DNA from: Clostridia bacterium
Lineage (GTDB): Bacteria; Bacillota; Clostridia; TANB77; CAG-508
Direction of reading: 5' to 3'
Length of the DNA stretch: 64,000 bases
NCBI GenBank assembly: GCA_022797635.1
Contig: JAAWKZ010000001.1
Location: forward strand, 31,532-95,531
This document shows, in pieces, positions 2,901 through 25,950 of the stretch. Below the pieces are notes generated by a model. The model saw only the letters and a list, made by a program, of their open reading frames with translations. It was not told the DNA's origin and did not search any database. How positions within the stretch are numbered: position 1 is the first letter of the stretch; each line of letters opens with the position of its first letter. The position numbers and the translations under genes are program-made.

Positions 2901-3362
2901 ATGAATATTAATGTATCTTTTGAAGAATTTAAAAAAGCATACGGAGGACTTTTTATGTTGGAAGAACTAAAAGAGAGATTACATCAAAGAAAAGCTTCAT
3001 TAATAGTAAAATTTACGAATGGGGAAATAAAAGAATACTATCAAAACAGAATTGAAGACATCAAAGAAATATTGCAAAATGATAAGCAATCTTTAAAAGG
3101 TGCAAGCATAGCAGATAAAGTGATAGGAAAAGTAGTAAGTAGCATTTTAACTGTTGCAGGTGTAAAGGAAATATATGCAGATGTCATGAGCAAATATACT
3201 ATTCCTATATTAGAAAAAAACGGAATTAAGTATGAATATAAAAGTTTAGTAGAATATGTACAAAATAATGATAAAACAGGCATGTGTCCAATGGAAAATA
3301 AATATAAACAAGAGAATGATATTCATAAAATTTATAAAGAAATGGTAGAAGGTAGAATTTAA
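2901..3362 (+). CDS. hypothetical protein
   Basis: 153-aa ORF with no recognisable domain; immediately upstream of the DUF2806-like gene. Confidence 0.4.
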   Translation: MNINVSFEEFKKAYGGLFMLEELKERLHQRKASLIVKFTNGEIKEYYQNRIEDIKEILQNDKQSLKGASIADKVIGKVVSSILTVAGVKEIYADVMSKYTIPILEKNGIKYEYKSLVEYVQNNDKTGMCPMENKYKQENDIHKIYKEMVEGRI

Positions 3363-3491
3363 TTCTATCTTCTTTTTGTATAAATATGGTAAAAACTATT
3401 CCAAAGGAAACAAAAATTTGATATAATGCAAAAGACGAGAATTTAATATTAGGTGAATAAAATTAATCATAATAAATGGAGGAAAAAACAT

Positions 3492-4493: not shown

Positions 4494-5582
4494 TTGTTAA
4501 AACTAATAAAATTAGAAAAGAAATATGAAAAACAATTAATAGATATGATGGATGAATGGAATAGAACAGGAGAAAAAATAGTACCATATGCTATTAGAAA
4601 AACAGATTATCATAATTTTGATACTTATTTAGACAGTTTAGAAGTAAAGGAAAATAAAGAAGGAATGGTTCCAGATTCAACTTTTTTCTGTCTAGATACA
4701 GATAGAAATATATTTGTAGGAGCTGTGAATATTAGATACCATCTTAATGATTCTTTACTGTTAAATGGTGGGCATATAGGAGATGGAGTTCGACCTTCTG
4801 AAAGAAGAAAAGGATATGCTACAGAAATGATAAAATTAGCTTTAGAAGAATGTAGAAGATTGGGAATTGATAAAGTGCTAATGGTATGTGATAAAGATAA
4901 TATTGGCTCTGCTAGAAGTATACAAAAAAATGGTGGTATTTTAGAAAATGAAGTTCTTATTGATGGAGTATTAGAACAAAGATATTGGATTGATCTAATT
5001 GATAAACAAAGTATCAAAAATGTACTCTTAATTCATGGCTATAATGGTATACCTAAAATTTATAGGTGGTTAGAACAAGAACTTGAAAAATTAGGATATA
5101 ATGTTATTGTACCTAAATTTGAAACAAGAGAAGGTGTTATATACGAAAGTTGGAAAAAGGTACTTAACAATTACAAAAAATATATAAACGAGGAAAGTAT
5201 TTTAGTAGCACATTCTATAGGAAATGAATTTATTATTAAATATTTTAATGAAAATGACTTAAAAGTAAAGCTATATATTAGCTTAGCAGGATTTTCAGAA
5301 TATTTTGAATGGGAAGAGAAAGAAGACTTAAATAGAGCTTGTAAAGAGTTTTTAGTAACTGAAAGCGAATTGAAAAACTTTAGAAATAGATGTACAAAAA
5401 AATATTCAATATATAGTGATAATGACCATATCGTACCATTTAATATATTGCAAAAGTATCCAAAAGATATAGATGCAATTCCAATATTAATAGAAAATAT
5501 TGGACATATGGGAAAGAAAAGTGGACTAGAAGAAATCCCAAAAGTAATAGAAATTATAAAAGAAAATGACTTATATGATTAA
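4494..5582 (+). CDS. fusion protein: N-terminal GNAT acetyltransferase + C-terminal YdeN/RBBP9-type alpha/beta serine hydrolase
   Basis: TTG start with AAGGAGAG RBS. The N-terminal half carries HIGDGVRPSERRKGYATEM...KNGG (GNAT). The C-terminal half carries LLIHGYNG...AHSIGN...YSDNDHIVPF...IENIGHM (Ser_hydrolase family). Confidence 0.6.
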   Translation: MLKLIKLEKKYEKQLIDMMDEWNRTGEKIVPYAIRKTDYHNFDTYLDSLEVKENKEGMVPDSTFFCLDTDRNIFVGAVNIRYHLNDSLLLNGGHIGDGVRPSERRKGYATEMIKLALEECRRLGIDKVLMVCDKDNIGSARSIQKNGGILENEVLIDGVLEQRYWIDLIDKQSIKNVLLIHGYNGIPKIYRWLEQELEKLGYNVIVPKFETREGVIYESWKKVLNNYKKYINEESILVAHSIGNEFIIKYFNENDLKVKLYISLAGFSEYFEWEEKEDLNRACKEFLVTESELKNFRNRCTKKYSIYSDNDHIVPFNILQKYPKDIDAIPILIENIGHMGKKSGLEEIPKVIEIIKENDLYD

Positions 5583-11563: not shown

Positions 11564-12379
11564 ATGCAGCAAGAAATAGAAATTGATAGAAAGAAATTAG
11601 TAAGAAGAGTTATATTAGTTTTACTAATTATTCTTTTACTTATTTTAATAAAACGAGTTATTTATAGAAGAATAGAAAGCGAAGAGGAATTAGCAAGTAG
11701 CAGCCAGACTAATATGATAATAAGGGATGAAAATGAACCAACAGATAAAATAACAGTAATCATGAAAAATGAAGAAGGAACATTCGAAATAGACAAAAAA
11801 GAAGCTGAGAAAAAGGAAACAGAACTAGACTGGAATTTGCTATTAGTTAATACTAACAATAAAATGTCAGATGACTATCATGTTCAGCTAGAAAATATTG
11901 ATCAAAGCAGAAGTTTTGATAAAAGAGCAATTCAAAATTTAACAAACATGCTAAGTGCAATCAGAAATGCAGGTATTTCTAATATCTGGATTCAATCAGC
12001 CTATAGAACCCCAGAAGCACAACAGAGATTATTCGAAGATCAAGTACAAGCTTATATATATCAAGGATATGATGAAAGAATAGCTAGAGAATTAACAGAA
12101 AAAATCATTAATAAGCCTTGGCATAGTGAACATAATTTAGGACTAGCTGTGGACTTTAACTATGTAAATAGAGAATTTGAGAATACAGCTGCCTTTCAGT
12201 GGTTACAAGAAAATGCACAAGAGTATGGCTTCATTTTACGATATGCAGAAGAAAAAGAAAATATTACAAAAGTAAGTTATGAGCCATGGCATTGGAGATA
12301 TGTAGGAGAAAAACATGCTAAAAAGATGAAAAGTCAAAATCTGTGTTTAGAAGAATATATCGAGAAAATAACAAAATAG
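11564..12379 (+). CDS. D-alanyl-D-alanine carboxypeptidase, VanY/M15B family, membrane-anchored
   Basis: N-terminal TM segment. SEHNLGLAVD and HWRYVG motifs typical of VanY-type peptidases. Confidence 0.7.
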   Translation: MQQEIEIDRKKLVRRVILVLLIILLLILIKRVIYRRIESEEELASSSQTNMIIRDENEPTDKITVIMKNEEGTFEIDKKEAEKKETELDWNLLLVNTNNKMSDDYHVQLENIDQSRSFDKRAIQNLTNMLSAIRNAGISNIWIQSAYRTPEAQQRLFEDQVQAYIYQGYDERIARELTEKIINKPWHSEHNLGLAVDFNYVNREFENTAAFQWLQENAQEYGFILRYAEEKENITKVSYEPWHWRYVGEKHAKKMKSQNLCLEEYIEKITK

Positions 12380-12479
12380 AATATTTCAAAAAGTATTCAA
12401 AAAAGCAAGAAAGTATAGTATAATACCTATAAAATTAAAAAAGGAGATATGTTAAATAAAATTTGACATTTACGGAAAT

Positions 12480-18435: not shown

Positions 18436-21177
18436 ATGGGATTATTTAAAACATATAGCGAAAAAGAAGTAAAGAGAGTAAAGCCAATTGTAGAGAAGAT
18501 TAACAGTTTAGAAGAGGAATTTCAAAAATTAACAGATGAGCAGTTAAGAGGTAAAACTGCAGAATTTAAAAAGCAATTAGAAGAAGGTAAAACCTTAGAT
18601 GATATTTTGCCAGAAGCATTTGCAACTGTGAGAGAAGCATCAAAAAGAGTATTGGGAATGAGGCACTTTGATGTTCAATTAATTGGTGGTATTATTCTTC
18701 ATCAAGGAAGAATTGCTGAAATGAAAACAGGTGAAGGTAAAACATTAGTTGCCACATTACCTGTATATTTGAATGCTTTAACGGGAAAAGGCGTACATGT
18801 TATTACAGTTAACGATTACCTAGCCAAAAGAGATAGTGAATGGATGGGAAAAGTATACAAGTTTTTAGGACTAACAGTAGGATTAGTTATTGCAGGAATG
18901 GAACCAGAAGCAAAAAGAGAAGCTTATCATGCTGACGTTACTTATGGTACTAACAACGAATTTGGTTTTGACTACCTAAGAGATAACATGGTTATTTATA
19001 AAGAACAATTAGTACAAAGAGAATTAAATTATGCTATTGTGGACGAAATCGATAGTATTTTAGTAGATGAGGCTCGTACACCACTTATCATTTCTGGTCG
19101 TGGAACACAATCCTCTGATTTATATAAAAAGGCAGATAACTTTGTTAGAAGATTAACTCCAAAAGTAATTGTAGAAGAAGATTTAAAAGACGAAGCTCAA
19201 GCAGAAGATAACGAAAACTATGACTATATTGTTGACTTGAAAGCAAAATCAGCTTCTTTGACACAAAAAGGTATCGAAAAAGCTGAAAGAGAATTTAATT
19301 TAGAAAACTTCAATGATATTGAAAATTCTGAATTAGTGCACAATGTTAACCAAGCTTTAAGAGCACATGGTATTATGAAAAAAGATATTGACTACATTGT
19401 AAAAGATGGGGAAGTATTAATTGTAGATGAATTTACTGGACGTATTATGTATGGAAGAAGATATAATAATGGATTACATCAAGCAATTGAAGCAAAAGAA
19501 CATGTAAAAATTGCAGATGAGTCTAAAACTCTTGCAACGATTACTTTCCAAAATTACTTTAGAATGTATGGTAAATTATCTGGTATGACTGGTACTGCTA
19601 TGACAGAAGAAGCCGAATTTGAGGAAATTTATCACTTGGACGTTATTGAAATACCAACCAATAAACCAATGGTTCGTAATGACCACCATGACATTATTTA
19701 CAAGAATGAAGATGCTAAATTTAGAGCAGTTATTCAAGATATCAAAGAAAGTCATAAAAAAGGACAACCAGTTCTAGTTGGTACAGTTTCTATTGAAAAA
19801 TCTGAAAAACTAAGTAATCTACTAAAGAGGGAAGGAATTAAGCATGAAGTATTAAATGCTAAATTCCATGAAAAAGAAGCCGAAATTATTGCACAAGCAG
19901 GTAAATATGGAGCTGTTACAATTGCAACAAACATGGCAGGCCGTGGTACTGATATTATGCTTGGTGGTAATAGTGAATATCTAGCAAAACAAGAAATGAG
20001 AAGACAAAGATATACAGAAGAACAACTAGAACAAGCAACCGCTTTCAATGAGACACAAGATGAAAGTATTTTGGAAGCTAGAAAGAAGTTCAAAGAATTA
20101 GAAGCGAAATTTGATCAAGAAATCAAAGAAGAAAAAGAAAAGGTACTTGCAGCAGGTGGATTAAAGATTATTGGTACAGAAAGACATGAGTCTAGAAGAA
20201 TTGATAATCAGCTTCGTGGACGTAGCGGTCGTCAAGGGGACCCAGGAGAATCAAGATTTTATATTGCATTAGATGATGATTTAATGAAAATCTTTGGTGG
20301 TGATGCGATTACTAGAGTATATAACACATTAGGTGCAGACGAAGATATGCCACTAGAGTCAAAACTACTTTCTAATGCAGTAGAAACTGCTCAAAAGAAA
20401 GTAGAAAGTCAAAACTTTAGCATTCGTAAAAATGTCTTACAATATGATGATGTTATGAATGTACAAAGAGGAACTATTTATGATCAAAGAAGAAGAGTTC
20501 TTGATGGAGAAGATTTAAAAAAGAATGTATTAAATATGATAGACAGTTTAGTAGAAGAAACTGCGGCAGAATATTTATCAGAAGTTGCAGACTTTAACTT
20601 AGATGCATTCAATCAAGATGTTAGCGTTAATTTTGGTATTACAGAACTAGAATCTACTAAAAAAGACAAGATTGTATTTAGCGAAGTAACTCAAGAATTA
20701 AAAGAAAAAGCACATCAGATTTATGAACAAAAAGAACAAGAAATTGGCGCTGATAACATGAGAGAACTTGAAAGAGTTATCATGTTGAAAATTGTTGATG
20801 ATAGATGGATGGATCATATTGAAGCAATGGACGAACTTAAAAATGGTATTGGTTTACGTGCTTATGGTCAAAAAGACCCTGTTGTTCAATACAGAATGGA
20901 AGGGGCAGACATGTTTGATCAAATGAATTTAGATATTCAAACAGATGTCATCAAATTCCTAATGAATGCTAGAAAAAGAGAAGAAAACTTACAAAGAACA
21001 ACATCAGTCAAGATTACAGGAGAAGGATTTGAAGACACATTAAGAGACTTAGATACACAAGCTCCTAGAAAATCAGGTGGAAATATGACAGTTGTGAATA
21101 CTGCTCCAAATGTTGGAAGAAATGACCCTTGCCCTTGTGGAAGTGGCAAAAAGTACAAGAATTGCTGCGGAAAGTAA
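18436..21177 (+). CDS. secA: preprotein translocase ATPase SecA
   Basis: 913 aa with full SecA motifs and a C-terminal zinc finger [14 protein letters not shown]. Confidence 0.95.
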
Positions 21178-21191
21178 TTTGTTATAAATAA

Positions 21192-21228
21192 ATGCTGACA
21201 TGAGGAAAATGCCAAATGTCAGCATTTT
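21192..21228 (+). terminator. secA terminator
   Basis: atgctgacat...atgtcagcat hairpin followed by TTTT. Confidence 0.6.
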
Positions 21229-21302
21229 GTCATTCTAAATTTTGAATTGCTGACAGTTTTTAGATAGAGTATTAAAATAAATCGACAAAAGTAGAGGCAA
21301 AT

Positions 21303-21932
21303 ATGATAAAAAATATAATTTTTGATTTAGGCAATGTAATTGTACAAAATCCAAATATAGATATAGTAAAGAAATTCTTTAAAGAAGAAAAAGATGCTAT
21401 AAATTTTAATGAATATATATTTAAGTCAGAATTTTGGAAACTAATGGATTTAGGAAAAATGAATAATTTAGAAATAGCTAATACTATAAAAGAAGAAAGA
21501 CTTGCGGATATAACAAACTATGATGAGATTGAAGATTTTATGCTAAATTGGTTTACTAAATGTGATGCAAATGATAAAACAATGGAAATAGTAAAGAGAT
21601 TAAAACAAAAAGGGTATAACATATATATTTTATCGAATATGTCAAAAGCTACTTTTGAATATTTTTTAAAAAAATATGAGTTTTTTACTATGGTAGATGG
21701 AGCAATTGTTTCTGCATATGAAGGAATAAAAAAACCAGATTCAAAAATATTTGAATTACTATTGAAGAGATATTCTTTAAATGCCGAAGAATGTTTACTA
21801 ATTGATGATGACGATACTAATAAAACCTTAGAAGTTGCAAATTTTATTGGGATAAATGGAAGAAGAGTCAATTCTAATGATTCAGATGATGTAGTAAAAC
21901 TTTTAAAAGAAAACAATATAGAAATCAGGTGA
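21303..21932 (+). CDS. HAD-superfamily hydrolase (subfamily IA)
   Basis: Motif I DLGNV, plus KPD and IDDD motifs. Confidence 0.7.
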   Translation: MIKNIIFDLGNVIVQNPNIDIVKKFFKEEKDAINFNEYIFKSEFWKLMDLGKMNNLEIANTIKEERLADITNYDEIEDFMLNWFTKCDANDKTMEIVKRLKQKGYNIYILSNMSKATFEYFLKKYEFFTMVDGAIVSAYEGIKKPDSKIFELLLKRYSLNAEECLLIDDDDTNKTLEVANFIGINGRRVNSNDSDDVVKLLKENNIEIR

Positions 21933-22103
21933 ACCCTAACAATATAATTTTTTTAGTATATAGGATAAAATCTAAAGTATTTTAGAAAATGGGCGACAGA
22001 GAGATTAAAAGAATATATGATAAAAGGTTTCACTATGGATGATGAAGGAATTAAAAGAAATAAATAGCAAAATTGAAAAGGAAGATAAAAAGAGGTTTGA
22101 GAT

Positions 22104-23429
22104 ATGAATGAAATAAGAGCTGTAAGTAAGTACGAAGAAATAGTAATTAAAATTTTAATGAAGAAAGGAATTAAATTCAAACAAAATCCAACTATTGAAG
22201 GGTGCAATTACAGACCAGACTTTATTGTTGAAAATTTAAATGGCTCTCAATACATTATAGAAGTAAAAAGTCGAATATTAGATATGAGTAAGATTATTAC
22301 AAATCTAGTTGATGCTCGTGATAAGATATCTGGAAACGATATTAATTATAAAGTATTATTAATTGTTTTTGAAAAAGTTTCTTCTTTTTTTGAAGATAAG
22401 TGCAAACAAGAAGGAATAGAAATATGGGATATAGAAGAAATAGAAAAAATAAATAAAGAAACCCTACCTAACGAAAAAGCAGTTAAGCCCAAAACGAAAA
22501 CAACAAAAAAGATTGAAATGGATGTTCTAGAGAATTCACTTGATTTTATTGTGAAATCATTTGAGGAAATGAAAACTTCAAAATCTTTAAAATATGCTTT
22601 GCTCAATTTTACATCAGGTATGGAATTACTTTTTAAAGCAATATTACTTAATGTACATTGGTCGCTTACTGTAGAAAATGTAGATAAAATAAAGGAACAA
22701 TCCTATGAAAATAGAGATTTTATGAGTGTAAATTGGGACAATTCTATACAACGTTTAAAAGTATTTTGTGAAATTGACTTCAAAGGTGTAGAAACTGATT
22801 TGAAAAACTTAAAACAATTAAGAAATAAAATAGAACATTATGATTGTAACTTCAATCCTAATTCAATAATCATGTTAATAAACAAATTAACAAATTTTTT
22901 AGTAAATCTTTTAGTAAATAATTTTGATACAAAGAAATTTCGAAAAAAGGGAAAAGAGCTTTTCGAAGATATACAATCAAGTTTATTTGAAAGTGAAGAA
23001 CAATACGAAAATGCAAAAAGATTAGCAGAAAAGAAGTTGAAGGATGAAAATAAGAGAGCTATAGATATTGTGTGCAAGGTATGTAAAGAGAAATTTGTGA
23101 CAGAAGAAAAAGGTTATTACCTATGTAATTTGTGCAAACAAGAACTTACAGCAGAAGATATAGCAAGTTCCTTTATTGAAAATGAATTGAAAATTGATGA
23201 AATTACTGAAGAGGATGATAATTTTCCCCAACACAATTGTCCAGAATGTTTACAATATTCATTTGTATATCATTACAAGGCAAATGGCGAAAAGATAGCA
23301 CATTGTTATAGTTGTAAAGGAGATTATCCCAATGCAAAACGTTGTGATAGATGCAAAGAGTTTTTTAATCCTATAAAAGAAGATGAATTTCTATGTGAAC
23401 GATGCTATAAGGAAACTCATATTGAGTGA
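22104..23429 (+). CDS. multidomain defence-like protein: PD-(D/E)xK restriction-endonuclease-like N-domain + HEPN-like (RNxIEH) middle + C-terminal triple zinc-ribbon
   Basis: N-terminus RPDFIV...YIIEVK (D...ExK). Mid-region LKQLRNKIEHYD (Rx4H). C-terminus has six CxxC pairs (CKVC, CNLC, CPEC, CYSC, CDRC, CERC). AAGAGG RBS. Confidence 0.6.
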   Translation: MNEIRAVSKYEEIVIKILMKKGIKFKQNPTIEGCNYRPDFIVENLNGSQYIIEVKSRILDMSKIITNLVDARDKISGNDINYKVLLIVFEKVSSFFEDKCKQEGIEIWDIEEIEKINKETLPNEKAVKPKTKTTKKIEMDVLENSLDFIVKSFEEMKTSKSLKYALLNFTSGMELLFKAILLNVHWSLTVENVDKIKEQSYENRDFMSVNWDNSIQRLKVFCEIDFKGVETDLKNLKQLRNKIEHYDCNFNPNSIIMLINKLTNFLVNLLVNNFDTKKFRKKGKELFEDIQSSLFESEEQYENAKRLAEKKLKDENKRAIDIVCKVCKEKFVTEEKGYYLCNLCKQELTAEDIASSFIENELKIDEITEEDDNFPQHNCPECLQYSFVYHYKANGEKIAHCYSCKGDYPNAKRCDRCKEFFNPIKEDEFLCERCYKETHIE

Positions 23430-23445
23430 AGTAGAGGAACGAAAA

Positions 23446-24162
23446 ATGAATTATTTTATTAGCCAAGAAATATTTAACTGGTATAATTTAAGTAGTACAC
23501 AACGCTATAATGGTGAAGACATAAAAGAGTGTTATGATTATTTAAATCATGCAGAAAGCTTAATTGTTGATTTTAAAGATAAGTTTCATATTCAAGACGC
23601 AATTAGAAATTTGAAAGTTGTTGTGGATAAACGTATTAAACAAATAGAAAGGGTTTATGACTTTAAATCATATTTTCCAAAACAACATATATTAGAGACT
23701 TATAAAGAACTAGGAATCGTTAAAGGATTCGTTATTAAAAAGCTTTTTACTATTAGAAACGATATAGAGCATAATGAATTAGAATATTCTGATGCAGAAC
23801 AATGCCATGATCTTTTGGATACAGTTTGGTATTTTTTGAAATCAACTGATGAGATGGTGTATACAGCAAATACAGGCATAGAAGTAACTGAAGATGACGA
23901 CGTTGAAAGTGAAGAAATATGGGTTGGAATTGATGTTGATAGTTCAAAAATGAAAGTTGCAGAAATTAGAGGCAGAGTAAATAAGGATTTTTTATCTAAA
24001 GAAAGATTTGAAAATGCTATCGAAATAGAAAACATTAAAATAAAAGAAGTAGCTGAGGGAAGAGTTTATTTTAGTGGAAATATTGTATTAACTAATCAGG
24101 CGAAAATTTTAATAGCTAAAAAAATTTTTATAAATAGAATACCGATCGGCAATAAATATTAA
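23446..24162 (+). CDS. HEPN-like (RNDIEH motif) protein, partner of the upstream gene
   Basis: GAGGAA RBS. Starts 17 nt after the upstream gene ends. TIRNDIEHNELEY (Rx4H) motif paralogous to the one in the upstream protein. C-terminal domain unknown. Confidence 0.55.
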   Translation: MNYFISQEIFNWYNLSSTQRYNGEDIKECYDYLNHAESLIVDFKDKFHIQDAIRNLKVVVDKRIKQIERVYDFKSYFPKQHILETYKELGIVKGFVIKKLFTIRNDIEHNELEYSDAEQCHDLLDTVWYFLKSTDEMVYTANTGIEVTEDDDVESEEIWVGIDVDSSKMKVAEIRGRVNKDFLSKERFENAIEIENIKIKEVAEGRVYFSGNIVLTNQAKILIAKKIFINRIPIGNKY

Positions 24163-24169
24163 AAAGCAT

Positions 24170-24201
24170 AAAAGAGGGGCGGTAAGCGAACCGCCTCCTC
24201 T
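24170..24201. terminator. GC-rich bidirectional terminator hairpin
   Basis: aagaggggcgg-taagcgaa-ccgcctcctctt, between the convergent genes. Confidence 0.6.
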
Positions 24202-24235
24202 TGCCAGGGAAAAGTTGCGTGATAATTTTTGTTTT

Positions 24236-24679
24236 TTAATTGTTCTCCTTTGCTTTTTCTTCTGTGATGATTTTCATTGCTGTTTCTTCTGTAACTAACG
24301 TGTGTTTGGTGTTCAAAACGAGAAACAAATCATCGTCTTCGTCTTTGTCTTTGTCTTTGTCATCGTCTTTGTTCTCTTTGTGTCCAATCGCTTTGATAGC
24401 GATGCGAAAATCGTTTCTAGCGATTTCGTTAAAGTCGATAATTAGACGAACTTCTTTGTTCACAAGTTGAGACTGCCAACCTTCTCCCATAACTCCTGTG
24501 ATTTCCATGAGAAGATCAAGCTCTTGCATGTCGTTTCCGTCTTCCAGAGAAAACGATAGACCTGGTGTTACGAAGTAGGAACCAAACGCACCTTTGAAGA
24601 CAAGCCGAAGCTTTTTAGGAGTGGTTCTTAGAGTGGAATCAGCAATGATAATTTGAGAATTGATTGTCTTTAACATAGT
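24236..24679 (-). CDS. hypothetical protein with an acidic DDDKDKDKDEDDD linker; codon usage suggests high expression
   Basis: GGAGG RBS before MLKTINSQ. GC about 42% with many C-ending codons (gac, ttc, cgt, atc). Confidence 0.5.
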   Translation of the reverse strand, partial: TMLKTINSQIIIADSTLRTTPKKLRLVFKGAFGSYFVTPGLSFSLEDGNDMQELDLLMEITGVMGEGWQSQLVNKEVRLIIDFNEIARNDFRIAIKAIGHKENKDDDKDKDKDEDDDLFLVLNTKHTLVTEETAMKIITEEKAKENN

Positions 24680-24833
24680 TGTAAGCCTCCCTAGTATTAT
24701 AAAACGCATTTCTACGCTTAATATTACTATTATTATACCATACTCAACATAACATGTCAAATTTGCAACTTGATTATTCGAACTTTTAGTGATATAATAA
24801 ATAATCTTTAAGATAAAAGGGGGGAAAAAAGTA

Positions 24834-25950
24834 ATGATAGAACTTGAAGAAAATAGCAGAAAGTTACAGGAGTTGAAGGAAAGATTACTAAAGATAGGTG
24901 ATTCACTTTGATGTAGTAAATAAAGAAAAAGAATTGAAACTTTTAGAGGAACAAACTATGAATAATGACTTTTGGAATGATACAGGAAATAGTTCAAAAG
25001 TTTTAAAAGAGATAAATGGCTTAAAAGTGAAAGTAGAAGGATTTAATAGAATACAAAGTGAATTAAATAATATTCTGGAAATGAATGAATTATTAGAAAT
25101 AGAACCTGATGAAGAAATGGTAAAAGAAGTTATAAAATCTATTTCTATAGCAGATAAAGAAATTGAAAAATTAGAAATTACTACTTTGCTATCAGGCAAA
25201 TATGATAGTAATAATGCTATTATAACTATTCATCCAGGAGCAGGAGGTACAGAAGCACAGGATTGGGCTGAAATGTTATATCGTATGTATAGTAGATGGT
25301 CAAATGCACATAATTACGATTTAAAAGAGTTGGACTATTTAGAAGGTGATGAGGCAGGAGTAAAAAGTGTTACGTTTTCTGTTAATGGAGAATATGCATA
25401 TGGCTACTTAAAAGGAGAAATGGGAGTTCATCGTTTAGTTAGAATTTCACCTTTTGATGCAGGAGGGAGAAGACATACTTCATTTGCTTCTATTGAAGTA
25501 TTGCCAGAAATTGCAGACGATATTGAATTAGAAATTAATCCTGATGACATTAAAATGGATGTATATAGGGCATCTGGAGCAGGAGGGCAACATATTAATA
25601 AAACTTCGTCTGCGGTAAGATTAACGCATATTCCAACAGGAATTGTAGTAGCCTGTCAAACAGAACGTTCACAGTTTCAAAACAAAGATACAGCACTTAA
25701 AATGTTAAAATCTAAATTGTTAAATCTAAAAGAAAGAGAACAAAAAAATACCATTGAAGAATTAAAAGGTATTCAAATGGATATTGCTTGGGGGAGTCAA
25801 ATTCGTTCTTATGTGTTTTGCCCATATACTCTAGTAAAAGACCATAGAACAAATTATGAAATAGGGAACGTGCAAGCGGTTATGGATGGAGATTTAGATG
25901 AGTTTATTGATTCTTATTTAAAATGGAATGTAGAGAAAGATATAAAATAG
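24834..25950 (+). CDS. prfB: peptide chain release factor 2, with the conserved programmed +1 frameshift
   Basis: ORF0 MIELEENSRKLQELKERLLKIGDSL ends at CTT TGA (24906-24911) with an upstream AGGTGA SD-like element. The +1 frame continues FDVVNKE... to 25950. Contains the GGQ motif. Confidence 0.9.

Follow-up and report, generated by a model that had tools for sequence, protein, structure and literature searches.

Two adjacent HEPN genes, here designated A and B, lie between secA and prfB in an uncultured gut Clostridia genome and are probably two independent single-gene immunity modules that became neighbors by chance in a variable recombination hotspot. The window, i.e. the stretch of 64,000 nucleotides of contig JAAWKZ010000001.1 that was analyzed, had previously been given a sequence-only reading, which proposed a candidate undescribed two-gene cassette of paralogous HEPN proteins, plausibly forming a heterodimeric toxin. 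The recognition of an accessory insert with a likely role in defense is supported by our data, and so is its position between secA and prfB. However, the locus amounts to a small pile-up of known defense genes rather than a system of a new kind. As both genes fall into described single-gene families and relatives carry either one without its counterpart, A and B do not constitute a new two-gene system. Domain identities, family membership, mutual independence, defense-rich neighborhoods and purifying selection were observed directly, while a defense role of both genes is suggested by their family membership and neighborhood. The features of the insert are compiled in Table 1.

Table 1. Features of the secA-prfB insert. 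Positions refer to the window.
Feature	Position	Strand	Remarks
HAD-family hydrolase, 209 aa	21303-21932	+	Pfam Hydrolase 1.3e-17; missing from the loci of all fetched relatives
Gene A	22104-23429	+	441 aa; PD-(D/E)xK nuclease domain, DUF3644/EC042_2821-type HEPN domain and three Cys4 zinc ribbons, as assigned from sequence and fold
Restriction-endonuclease-like (PD-(D/E)xK) domain, gene A residues 1-120	22104-22463	+
HEPN domain, gene A residues 140-314	22521-23045	+	Rx4H motif R240-N-K-I-E-H245, nt 22821-22838
Three Cys4 zinc ribbons, gene A residues 320-441	23061-23426	+	Cys conservation; PDC-S64 model to residue 419; weak Pfam zinc-ribbon matches
Gene B	23446-24162	+	238 aa; assigned to the Ishtar family; short N-terminal hairpin, N-terminal HEPN, C-terminal beta-rich domain; stand-alone in other genomes
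HEPN-like helical bundle, gene B residues 27-139	23524-23862	+	R104-N-D-I-E-H109, nt 23755-23772
Beta-rich C-terminal domain, gene B residues 140-228	23863-24129	+	five strands plus one helix (AF2 secondary structure)
GC-rich hairpin between gene B and acidic gene	about 24173-24200	.	terminator scan: minus strand only, 24195-24178
Convergent acidic protein, 147 aa	24236-24679	-	own consensus promoter, 12/12 match at 24760-24732

Domain architecture and family of gene A

The HEPN-type Rx4H motif that had been read from both proteins is confirmed by its conservation within each family and by structural matches. In gene A, R240 and H245 lie within residues 236-247 (LKQLRNKIEHYD), and R240, N241 and H245 are invariant in 27/27 sequences of the A family, which shows that the motif match is not due to chance. 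Both the restriction-endonuclease fold and the HEPN fold were recognized in the structure. As predicted from the sequence, the N-terminus adopts the alpha-beta-beta-beta-alpha-beta core fold of PD-(D/E)xK enzymes with the E...PD...(D/E)xK constellation, in which E11, D39, E53 and K55 represent the candidate catalytic residues. The C-terminus indeed contains six CxxC pairs (C324/327, 341/344, 379/382, 401/404, 414/417 and 431/434); the first eight cysteines do not vary across the 27 sequences, and the six closest homologues share a further four without exception.

The expectation that profile searches would recognize the two proteins was borne out for A, which was matched by PADLOC, and failed for B in Pfam. 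The best PADLOC model, PDC-S64, matched gene A with 4.9e-23 and aligned residues 139-419 with profile positions 11-300 of 339, i.e. 85% of the model. The models for HEC-08 (4.6e-20; residues 130-305, profile positions 8-185 of 358) and DUF3644 (1e-18) also matched. The link to DUF3644 is through the model of PADLOC, as the Pfam model of this name gave no match at E<=1. Searches of gene A against Pfam, NCBIfam and PHROG returned sub-threshold matches only, and searches against PDB sequences with gene A or its profile as query yielded nothing meaningful. Based on these matches, we assign gene A to the DUF3644/EC042_2821 HEPN family and its C-terminal 300 residues to the HEC-08/PDC-S64-like single-gene defense modules.

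HEC-08 (Hma-embedded candidate 8) is a single gene encoding a DUF3644 HEPN domain and zinc-finger-like domains, which defends E. coli against phage, and mutation of the motif histidine abolishes defense (Payne et al., bioRxiv 10.1101/2024.01.29.577857). A literature search for the name PDC-S64 found no paper mentioning this candidate. Like gene A, HEC-08 and PDC-S64 combine a DUF3644-type HEPN domain carrying Rx4-6H with several downstream zinc-ribbon or finger-like domains, and they occur as single genes in defense islands. Unlike these proteins, gene A possesses an additional PD-(D/E)xK domain of 120 residues at its N-terminus, and the tested HEC-08 protein is a distant relative whose match spans the HEPN half only. 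Fusions of this HEPN family to REase and ZnR domains were already tabulated in 2013 for the EC042_2821/DUF3644 family (Table 1 in Anantharaman et al. 2013, PMC3710099). This list names the fusion partners of gene A and also fits the restriction-modification context of two of the fetched loci (L026/27); a wHTH, in contrast to that family, was not detected in gene A. Gene A thus cannot be called undescribed, and it provides an example of the HEC-08/PDC-S64 family in a rare, REase-fused form: only three homologue clusters with the PD-(D/E)xK domain were found, and the domain is present in 0/76 homologues encoded on plasmids.

Stand-alone HEPN-zinc-ribbon homologues of gene A adjoin the BREX genes PglZ/BrxL, are located between a TIR protein and a restriction-modification pair, or reside on the 76 plasmids; AbiQ (5e-44) adjoins one further homologue. 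Gene A is under purifying selection (dN/dS about 0.2-0.3, a range that covers A and B).

Gene B and the Ishtar family

Gene B most likely starts at the ATG at position 23446, which is preceded by the putative ribosome-binding site AGAGGA. Its residues 102-114 (TIRNDIEHNELEY) comprise R104 and H109. Loci of the B family were searched with a profile built from a 21-sequence alignment. Conservation was counted over 82 family representatives: R104, N105 and E108 are retained in 81/82 and H109 in 79/82 of them, again excluding a chance match. The family is large (601 clusters at 50% identity) and patchily distributed across many phyla.

Gene B yielded nothing significant in Pfam, NCBIfam and PHROG, and Pfam and PADLOC scans of the 82 family members produced no matches. 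Searches against PDB sequences with gene B or its profile as query gave nothing meaningful, and comparison with phage sequences gave no match. The AF2 model (pLDDT 83.6) shows an N-terminal hairpin and, past residue 140, five strands and one helix. Foldseek against the PDB provided no significant match for the whole protein and none at all for the C-terminal domain; HEPN-type structural matches for gene B were present, if not exclusive.

Gene B was considered an unannotated, possibly new family, and this idea was dropped because the supplement of the Ishtar study contains the same proteins. Ishtar (ist1/ist2; bioRxiv 10.64898/2026.07.06.735840, a preprint of July 2026) comprises monogenic HEPN proteins that clear conjugative plasmids, the activity having been demonstrated solely against RP4 with ist1 and ist2 of A. 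baumannii. BLASTP of gene B against proteins of the Ishtar homologue table gave 3e-29 and 3e-28, and hhalign with Ishtar sequences of the other clade, which includes the Acinetobacter protein, returned 99.4% probability (E 3.7e-21, 158 columns). Identity to the nearest table members is about 38% over the HEPN domain, and the Acinetobacter clade is more distant. One locus found by the gene B profile (L073) lies on the Sporosarcina record NZ_CP125968.1, which also holds a table entry carrying the B-family motifs; this match is at the level of the record. As judged from these comparisons, gene B belongs to the Ishtar family.

Gene B shares with Ishtar proteins the N-terminal HEPN domain and the size of about 210-260 residues, as well as the stand-alone, patchy occurrence near other defense genes and between core genes, and its beta-rich C-terminal domain may correspond to that of Ishtar. 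The latter has no known function and is built from helices and either 5 or 7 strands; in place of the single helix modeled for gene B, the preprint describes three. The proteins of the Ishtar table likewise lack a Pfam HMMER match. Gene B groups with a 'WYFLKSTD' clade, which is distinct from the Acinetobacter sequences of the table, the comparison covering the table members, and it is carried by a MAG of low-GC gut Clostridia. A further difference concerns an N-x-K-R motif in the second helix, which we read from the present alignments and which is not a criterion of the Ishtar authors. K-R is invariant in 15 Ishtar sequences of the other clade, and 79/82 B-family representatives carry Arg or Lys at position 58 (74 Arg, 5 Lys), whereas gene B lacks the motif and has V58, and its subclade has I, Y, V or N. 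Since the conserved arginine is replaced, the activity of this subclade may differ. Gene B thereby points to an Ishtar subclade without the arginine, and together the two genes extend two recent single-gene HEPN immunity families (HEC-08/PDC-S64, validated in 2024, and Ishtar, 2026) to uncultured low-GC gut Clostridia.

Occurrence of A and B and proposed mode of action

The conception of A and B as one system, in which their HEPN domains heterodimerize into a composite RNase acting as a new abortive-infection toxin, draws on the RNxIEH motif common to both proteins, on their co-orientation at close distance (16 nt rather than the 17 nt initially given) with no terminator called between them, and on the established fact that HEPN RNases work as dimers (Anantharaman et al. 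2013, PMC3710099). However, the two genes occur together only in three fetched loci (L017-19), whose identity to the window is 99-100%, while 14 loci contain A without B and 57 contain B without A. A near-conspecific genome (L028; SecA 99.1% identical) has the order secA, B, acidic gene, prfB and lacks A. Both families also act as single genes where tested. Neighbor clustering over 46 loci detected no conserved partner of B, i.e. none shared outside same-genus synteny. We therefore regard a joint system of this kind as very unlikely.

Paralogy of the two proteins is not supported either: BLASTP aligned them with E 0.2-0.3, and two profile-profile runs gave probabilities of 3.6% and 23%, the alignments being confined to 35-39 columns at the motif. 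As the similarity is limited to the motif helix, paralogy was rejected.

Neighbors of B-family genes include IetA/IetS, PDC-M33, a NACHT protein, recombinases, AbiK/DRT, PifA, PD-Lambda-2 and TIR proteins, the enrichment of defense genes around these loci being a coarse tally that has no formal background.

If A and B act separately, each would most likely form a homodimer in which two Rx4H motifs meet to build an RNase site, and this RNase would presumably cut RNA upon sensing of a foreign element. Sensing or nucleic-acid binding in A may be the task of the zinc ribbons, while its REase domain may provide a second (DNA) effector or a binding module; the presumed sensor of B is the C-terminal domain. 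Due to their 16-nt spacing and same orientation, A and B are probably co-transcribed in the window, and for this reason they could interact functionally at this particular locus. That the arginine-less, Ishtar-like B now works with or regulates A from one operon appears quite improbable, and the same applies to the alternative of a dual DNase/RNase effector created by the rare REase fusion in A, whose mechanism would differ from that of HEC-08.

The secA-prfB junction and flanking elements

The junction between secA and prfB is a variable recombination hotspot, in which HEPN-zinc-ribbon, Ishtar-like and AbiQ genes are swapped. In the window, the gap holds the HAD gene, A, B and the acidic gene, and its content differs among relatives; one relative carries AbiQ there. 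Comparison of the junction showed that A and B vary independently. In one relative (L007), gene A is 80% identical to that of the window while the flanking SecA is 66% identical, which points to horizontal transfer of A into the same gap. Direct or inverted repeats flanking the insert could not be discerned beyond AT-rich noise, and nothing convincing emerged when the vicinity of the AbiQ gene of locus L013 was searched for tandem repeats of the ToxI/antiQ-like kind. The junction could anchor the mining of these genomes for defense genes.

The position of B also bears on the idea that B is no longer an immune gene in this lineage, i.e. that it was domesticated as a secA-linked RNA-processing or regulatory protein and that only A is a defense gene. 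Three lineages have B between secA and prfB, and in one of them SecA is only 42-58% identical (L031; two segments). In close relatives such as L001, B begins 4 nt after the secA stop codon, and owing to this short gap it is probably co-transcribed with secA. The subclade has moreover lost the Pro at 115 in addition to the Arg at 58. However, B is missing altogether from related genomes with this gap (L007-16), and its subclade also has members elsewhere, namely beside IetAS with an integrase, beside NACHT with recombinases, and close to HTH genes. B also fully retains the catalytic RNxIEH, and its evolution is faster than that of the genes flanking it, with a dN/dS of 0.18-0.20 (still indicating purifying selection) versus 0.03-0.05. 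Domestication of B is thus unlikely, and independent immunity modules remain the preferred reading.

Another possibility is that A and B are the toxins of toxin-antitoxin, addiction or stress modules, in which either the convergent acidic protein or an unseen RNA would be the antitoxin. HepT/HEPN-MNT toxins of types II/VII (e.g. SO_3166, PDB 5yep; 7ae2) share the fold and Rx4-6H with A and B and, among solved structures, are the best matches to the two HEPN domains. In contrast to these toxins, A and B have extra domains, exhibit no sequence-level similarity to them and lack an MNT nucleotidyltransferase partner; an MNT domain was not present in the neighboring ORFs of the window, and no other known antitoxin gene is adjacent. 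Furthermore, the acidic gene accompanies B in this species group only and is missing from the 49 B-bearing loci outside the group, no conserved partner emerged from 46 genomes, and convergent orientation is unusual for toxin-antitoxin pairs. There is hence only a slight chance that this possibility applies, and two separate immunity genes better describe A and B.

The acidic gene, like the HAD gene, is treated here as context of A and B. Its product had no match in Pfam, PADLOC, NCBIfam, PHROG or phage sequences, and its GC content (0.38-0.42) exceeds that of its surroundings (about 0.25-0.30). The GC-rich terminator that A and B were thought to share is indeed present as a hairpin, but the terminator scan called it on the minus strand only and its plus strand has no T tract. 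Judged by this call and its sequence, the hairpin is probably a bidirectional terminator.

Layout of the secA-prfB interval

Two HEPN immunity proteins, each of a known single-gene kind, are stacked here as a small islet in a variable secA-prfB hotspot. The novelties of the region are minor and three in number, i.e. a rare REase fusion in gene A, an Ishtar subclade lacking an arginine, and the hotspot itself. Positions 22104-24162 comprise two ORFs in the same orientation, separated by 16 nt between the stop of gene A and what is most plausibly the start of gene B. The motifs quoted in the sequence-only reading were all found in their places. Its interpretation was partly correct, as regards domains and the defence flavour, but its claims of paralogy, of a two-gene heterodimer and of undescribed status did not stand.

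Features of the secA-prfB interval and its borders (window positions)
Feature	Position	Strand	Remarks
secA	18436-21177		upstream of gene A; followed by a hairpin, then the HAD gene
HAD-family hydrolase	21303-21932		between secA and gene A; Pfam Hydrolase 1.3e-17
gene A	22104-23429	+	ORF of 441 aa
gene B	23446-24162	+	238 aa; probable start ATG 23446 with AGAGGA ribosome-binding site 5'
acidic-protein gene	24679-24236	-	147 aa; convergent to gene B
prfB ORF0	24834-24911		25 codons, MIELEENSRKLQELKERLLKIGDSL, ending CTT TGA

The GC-rich hairpin downstream of gene B was called as a terminator for the minus strand only in a terminator scan. The acidic gene has a terminator of its own and a promoter (24760-24732) with perfect -35/-10 elements (12/12 consensus with TG extension), and its GC content is 0.38-0.42 versus a background of 0.25-0.30. 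Its product contains a poly-Asp/Lys acidic tract and had no match in family libraries or in phages; the gene was seen solely adjoining B, in the window's species group only. prfB possesses the canonical programmed +1 frameshift site at the end of ORF0, which is why the mechanical ORF list places its start at a false GTG at 24898.

Family assignment of genes A and B

Gene A had no significant match in Pfam or NCBIfam, but matched the PADLOC models PDC-S64 (4.9e-23, residues 139-419, 85% of the model), HEC-08 (4.6e-20, residues 130-305) and DUF3644 (1e-18). Database searches detected three close homologues of the same 441-444-aa build and ~25 more distant ones of roughly 300 aa, which lack the N-terminal 130 residues. 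Residues K163, E174, H185, W186, R217, R240, N241 and H245 are invariant across 27 A-family sequences, as are the first eight zinc-ribbon cysteines. Residues E11, D39, E53 and K55 form the canonical nuclease constellation and are conserved in homologues having this domain; the N-terminal fusion is of a rare type, but has been noted previously. Acting as a single gene, HEC-08 lowered the plaque formation of several coliphages by orders of magnitude, and mutation of its Rx4-6H histidine abolished defence (bioRxiv 10.1101/2024.01.29.577857). One solo A homologue adjoins the BREX genes PglZ and BrxL, another is flanked by a TIR protein and an R.HinP1I/methylase pair, and the HEPN-zinc ribbon module is present on 76 plasmids, contexts which agree with the account of this HEPN family by Anantharaman et al. 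(PMC3710099). Taken together, PADLOC matches, literature and homologue contexts show that gene A belongs to a known defence family.

No match to gene B was obtained in any profile library tried, Pfam, PADLOC, NCBIfam and PHROG included. Searching 1.84 billion representatives with a profile yielded a large family of 601 clusters at E<=1e-3, with members of ~240-260 aa and matches spanning both domains. Among 82 representatives R63, W128 and T134 are invariant, while R104, N105, E108 and H109 are each retained by at least 96%. The AF2 model (pLDDT 83.6, pTM 0.74) begins with a short hairpin, continues as a helical bundle (27-139) whose penultimate helix ends with the motif, a placement shared with gene A, and closes with a beta-rich C-terminal domain. 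Ishtar is the name given in a July 2026 preprint to ist1 and ist2 of Acinetobacter baumannii, both monogenic, which cause rapid loss of plasmid RP4 and encode an N-terminal HEPN and a C-terminal beta-rich domain without assigned function (bioRxiv 10.64898/2026.07.06.735840). The signature WYFLKSTD of gene B occurs in 19 of the homologues taken from Table S3 of that preprint. BLASTP detected the Chromobacterium and Paenibacillus entries at 3e-29 and 3e-28, respectively, with 36-38% identity over the HEPN domain. Profile-profile comparison of the 82 representatives with 15 Ishtar entries of the other clade, headed by a 218-aa Acinetobacter protein, gave 99.4% probability (E 3.7e-21, 158 columns). 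Moreover, a locus found with the B profile (L073, Sporosarcina thermotolerans NZ_CP125968.1) shares its genome record with an Ishtar-table entry carrying B-family motifs. Together, these three observations place gene B in the Ishtar family; the negative Pfam results do not speak against membership, because the Ishtar-table proteins likewise lack a Pfam match by HMMER.

In the second helix, a Lys-Arg (N-A-K-R) is invariant in the other Ishtar clade, and Arg or Lys occupies this position in 79 of the 82 B-family representatives. Whereas the Arg is near-invariant in the rest of the Ishtar-like family (N-L-K-R / N-A-K-R motif), gene B has Val58 (nt 23617-23619) and its gut-MAG subclade I, Y, V or N, which calls for caution over the inferred RNase mechanism. 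At position 115 the subclade has Ser or Thr replacing Pro; the catalytic RNxIEH is retained. A 183-aa B homologue without the beta domain (L021-L023, 7001-7552 and equivalents) recurs in at least 11 contigs, adjoining a divergent HTH_3 gene, and may result from truncation or decay of the gene.

One system or two

The sequence-only reading regarded A and B as paralogues and a heterodimeric RNase as plausible. However, BLASTP between them was not significant, and profile-profile comparisons gave 3.6% and 23% probability, restricted to 35-39 columns around the motif. Among all fetched loci, both genes were found together solely in three (L017-19), each 99-100% identical to the window; 14 loci had A but no B, and 57 had B but no A. 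Neighbour clustering in 46 genomes detected no conserved partner of B outside same-genus synteny. On these loci and comparisons the two-gene reading was rejected: A and B are not one system.

HEPN RNases homodimerise via the HEPN domain. By analogy, A and B would probably each homodimerise in this manner, forming a composite Rx4H site, which upon a trigger would probably cleave RNA. In A, the three zinc ribbons are likely a sensing or nucleic-acid-binding module and the seemingly intact PD-(D/E)xK domain would contribute cleavage or binding of DNA; in B, sensing likely falls to the beta-rich domain. For Ishtar, the preprint favours a model in which a plasmid replication primer RNA is degraded, as a proposal without proof (bioRxiv 10.64898/2026.07.06.735840).

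Gene exchange, neighbourhoods and selection

The interval (window 21178-24833) was compared with its counterparts in other genomes (L001, L007, L013-16, L028, L029, L031). Contents vary, comprising B alone, A alone, A with an acetyltransferase, AbiQ with A, or B with a 426-aa gene. L028 combines a 99.1% identical SecA with the order secA, B (88%), acidic gene, prfB (RF2 95%), a pattern suggestive of recombination in the surroundings of the islet. The secA stop lies 4 nt ahead of the B start in L001 and L029. The L007 lineage has secA, A (80%), an 80-aa ORF and prfB, and lacks B; here, A at 80% identity beside SecA at 66% points to horizontal transfer into the same gap. The 80-aa ORF (3224-3466), followed by a GC-rich hairpin, stands where B and the acidic gene would be and had no family match. 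Another lineage has secA, A (59%), a hexapeptide acetyltransferase and prfB. In one variant an AbiQ toxin gene (5e-44) is immediately upstream of A. Among these low-GC gut Clostridia/Bacilli MAGs, the space between secA and prfB is a hotspot where genes are swapped. Purifying selection acts on both A and B (dN/dS 0.18-0.31), but is looser than that on secA and prfB (0.03-0.05).

Elsewhere, some subclade B genes directly follow an IetA/IetS pair (4e-43, 4e-61), with integrase and PDC-M33 genes close by, and others follow two serine recombinases and a 1361-aa SMEK/NACHT protein. The 117 genes lying no more than two positions from B (~38 non-redundant genomes) include strong PADLOC matches to AbiK/DRT (5.6e-192), PDC-S22, PifA, PDC-M13A/B, PD-Lambda-2 A/B and PDC-M10A, and Pfam added TIR_2 (two), Resolvase (three) and one Schlafen-type helicase. 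This tally, a rough count without formal background, fits the preprint's statement that Ishtar genes are situated near defence genes (bioRxiv 10.64898/2026.07.06.735840).

The same 257-aa protein follows a B homologue in two unrelated contexts, IetAS and NACHT with recombinases (L004 8804-9577, L020 7806-8579). Its similarity to Pfam DUF5677 is sub-threshold (3.7e-5, 24.3 bits versus a cut-off of 27.1); it is absent from the window, and may form a conserved two-gene pairing with B within that subclade. In Vibrio mytili (L047), a 43-nt direct repeat (5109-5151 and 12351-12393, 98% identical) containing a terminator-like hairpin flanks 7.2 kb of short genes in one orientation, a B-family member among them; the repeats may delimit an inserted islet or an array of cassettes.
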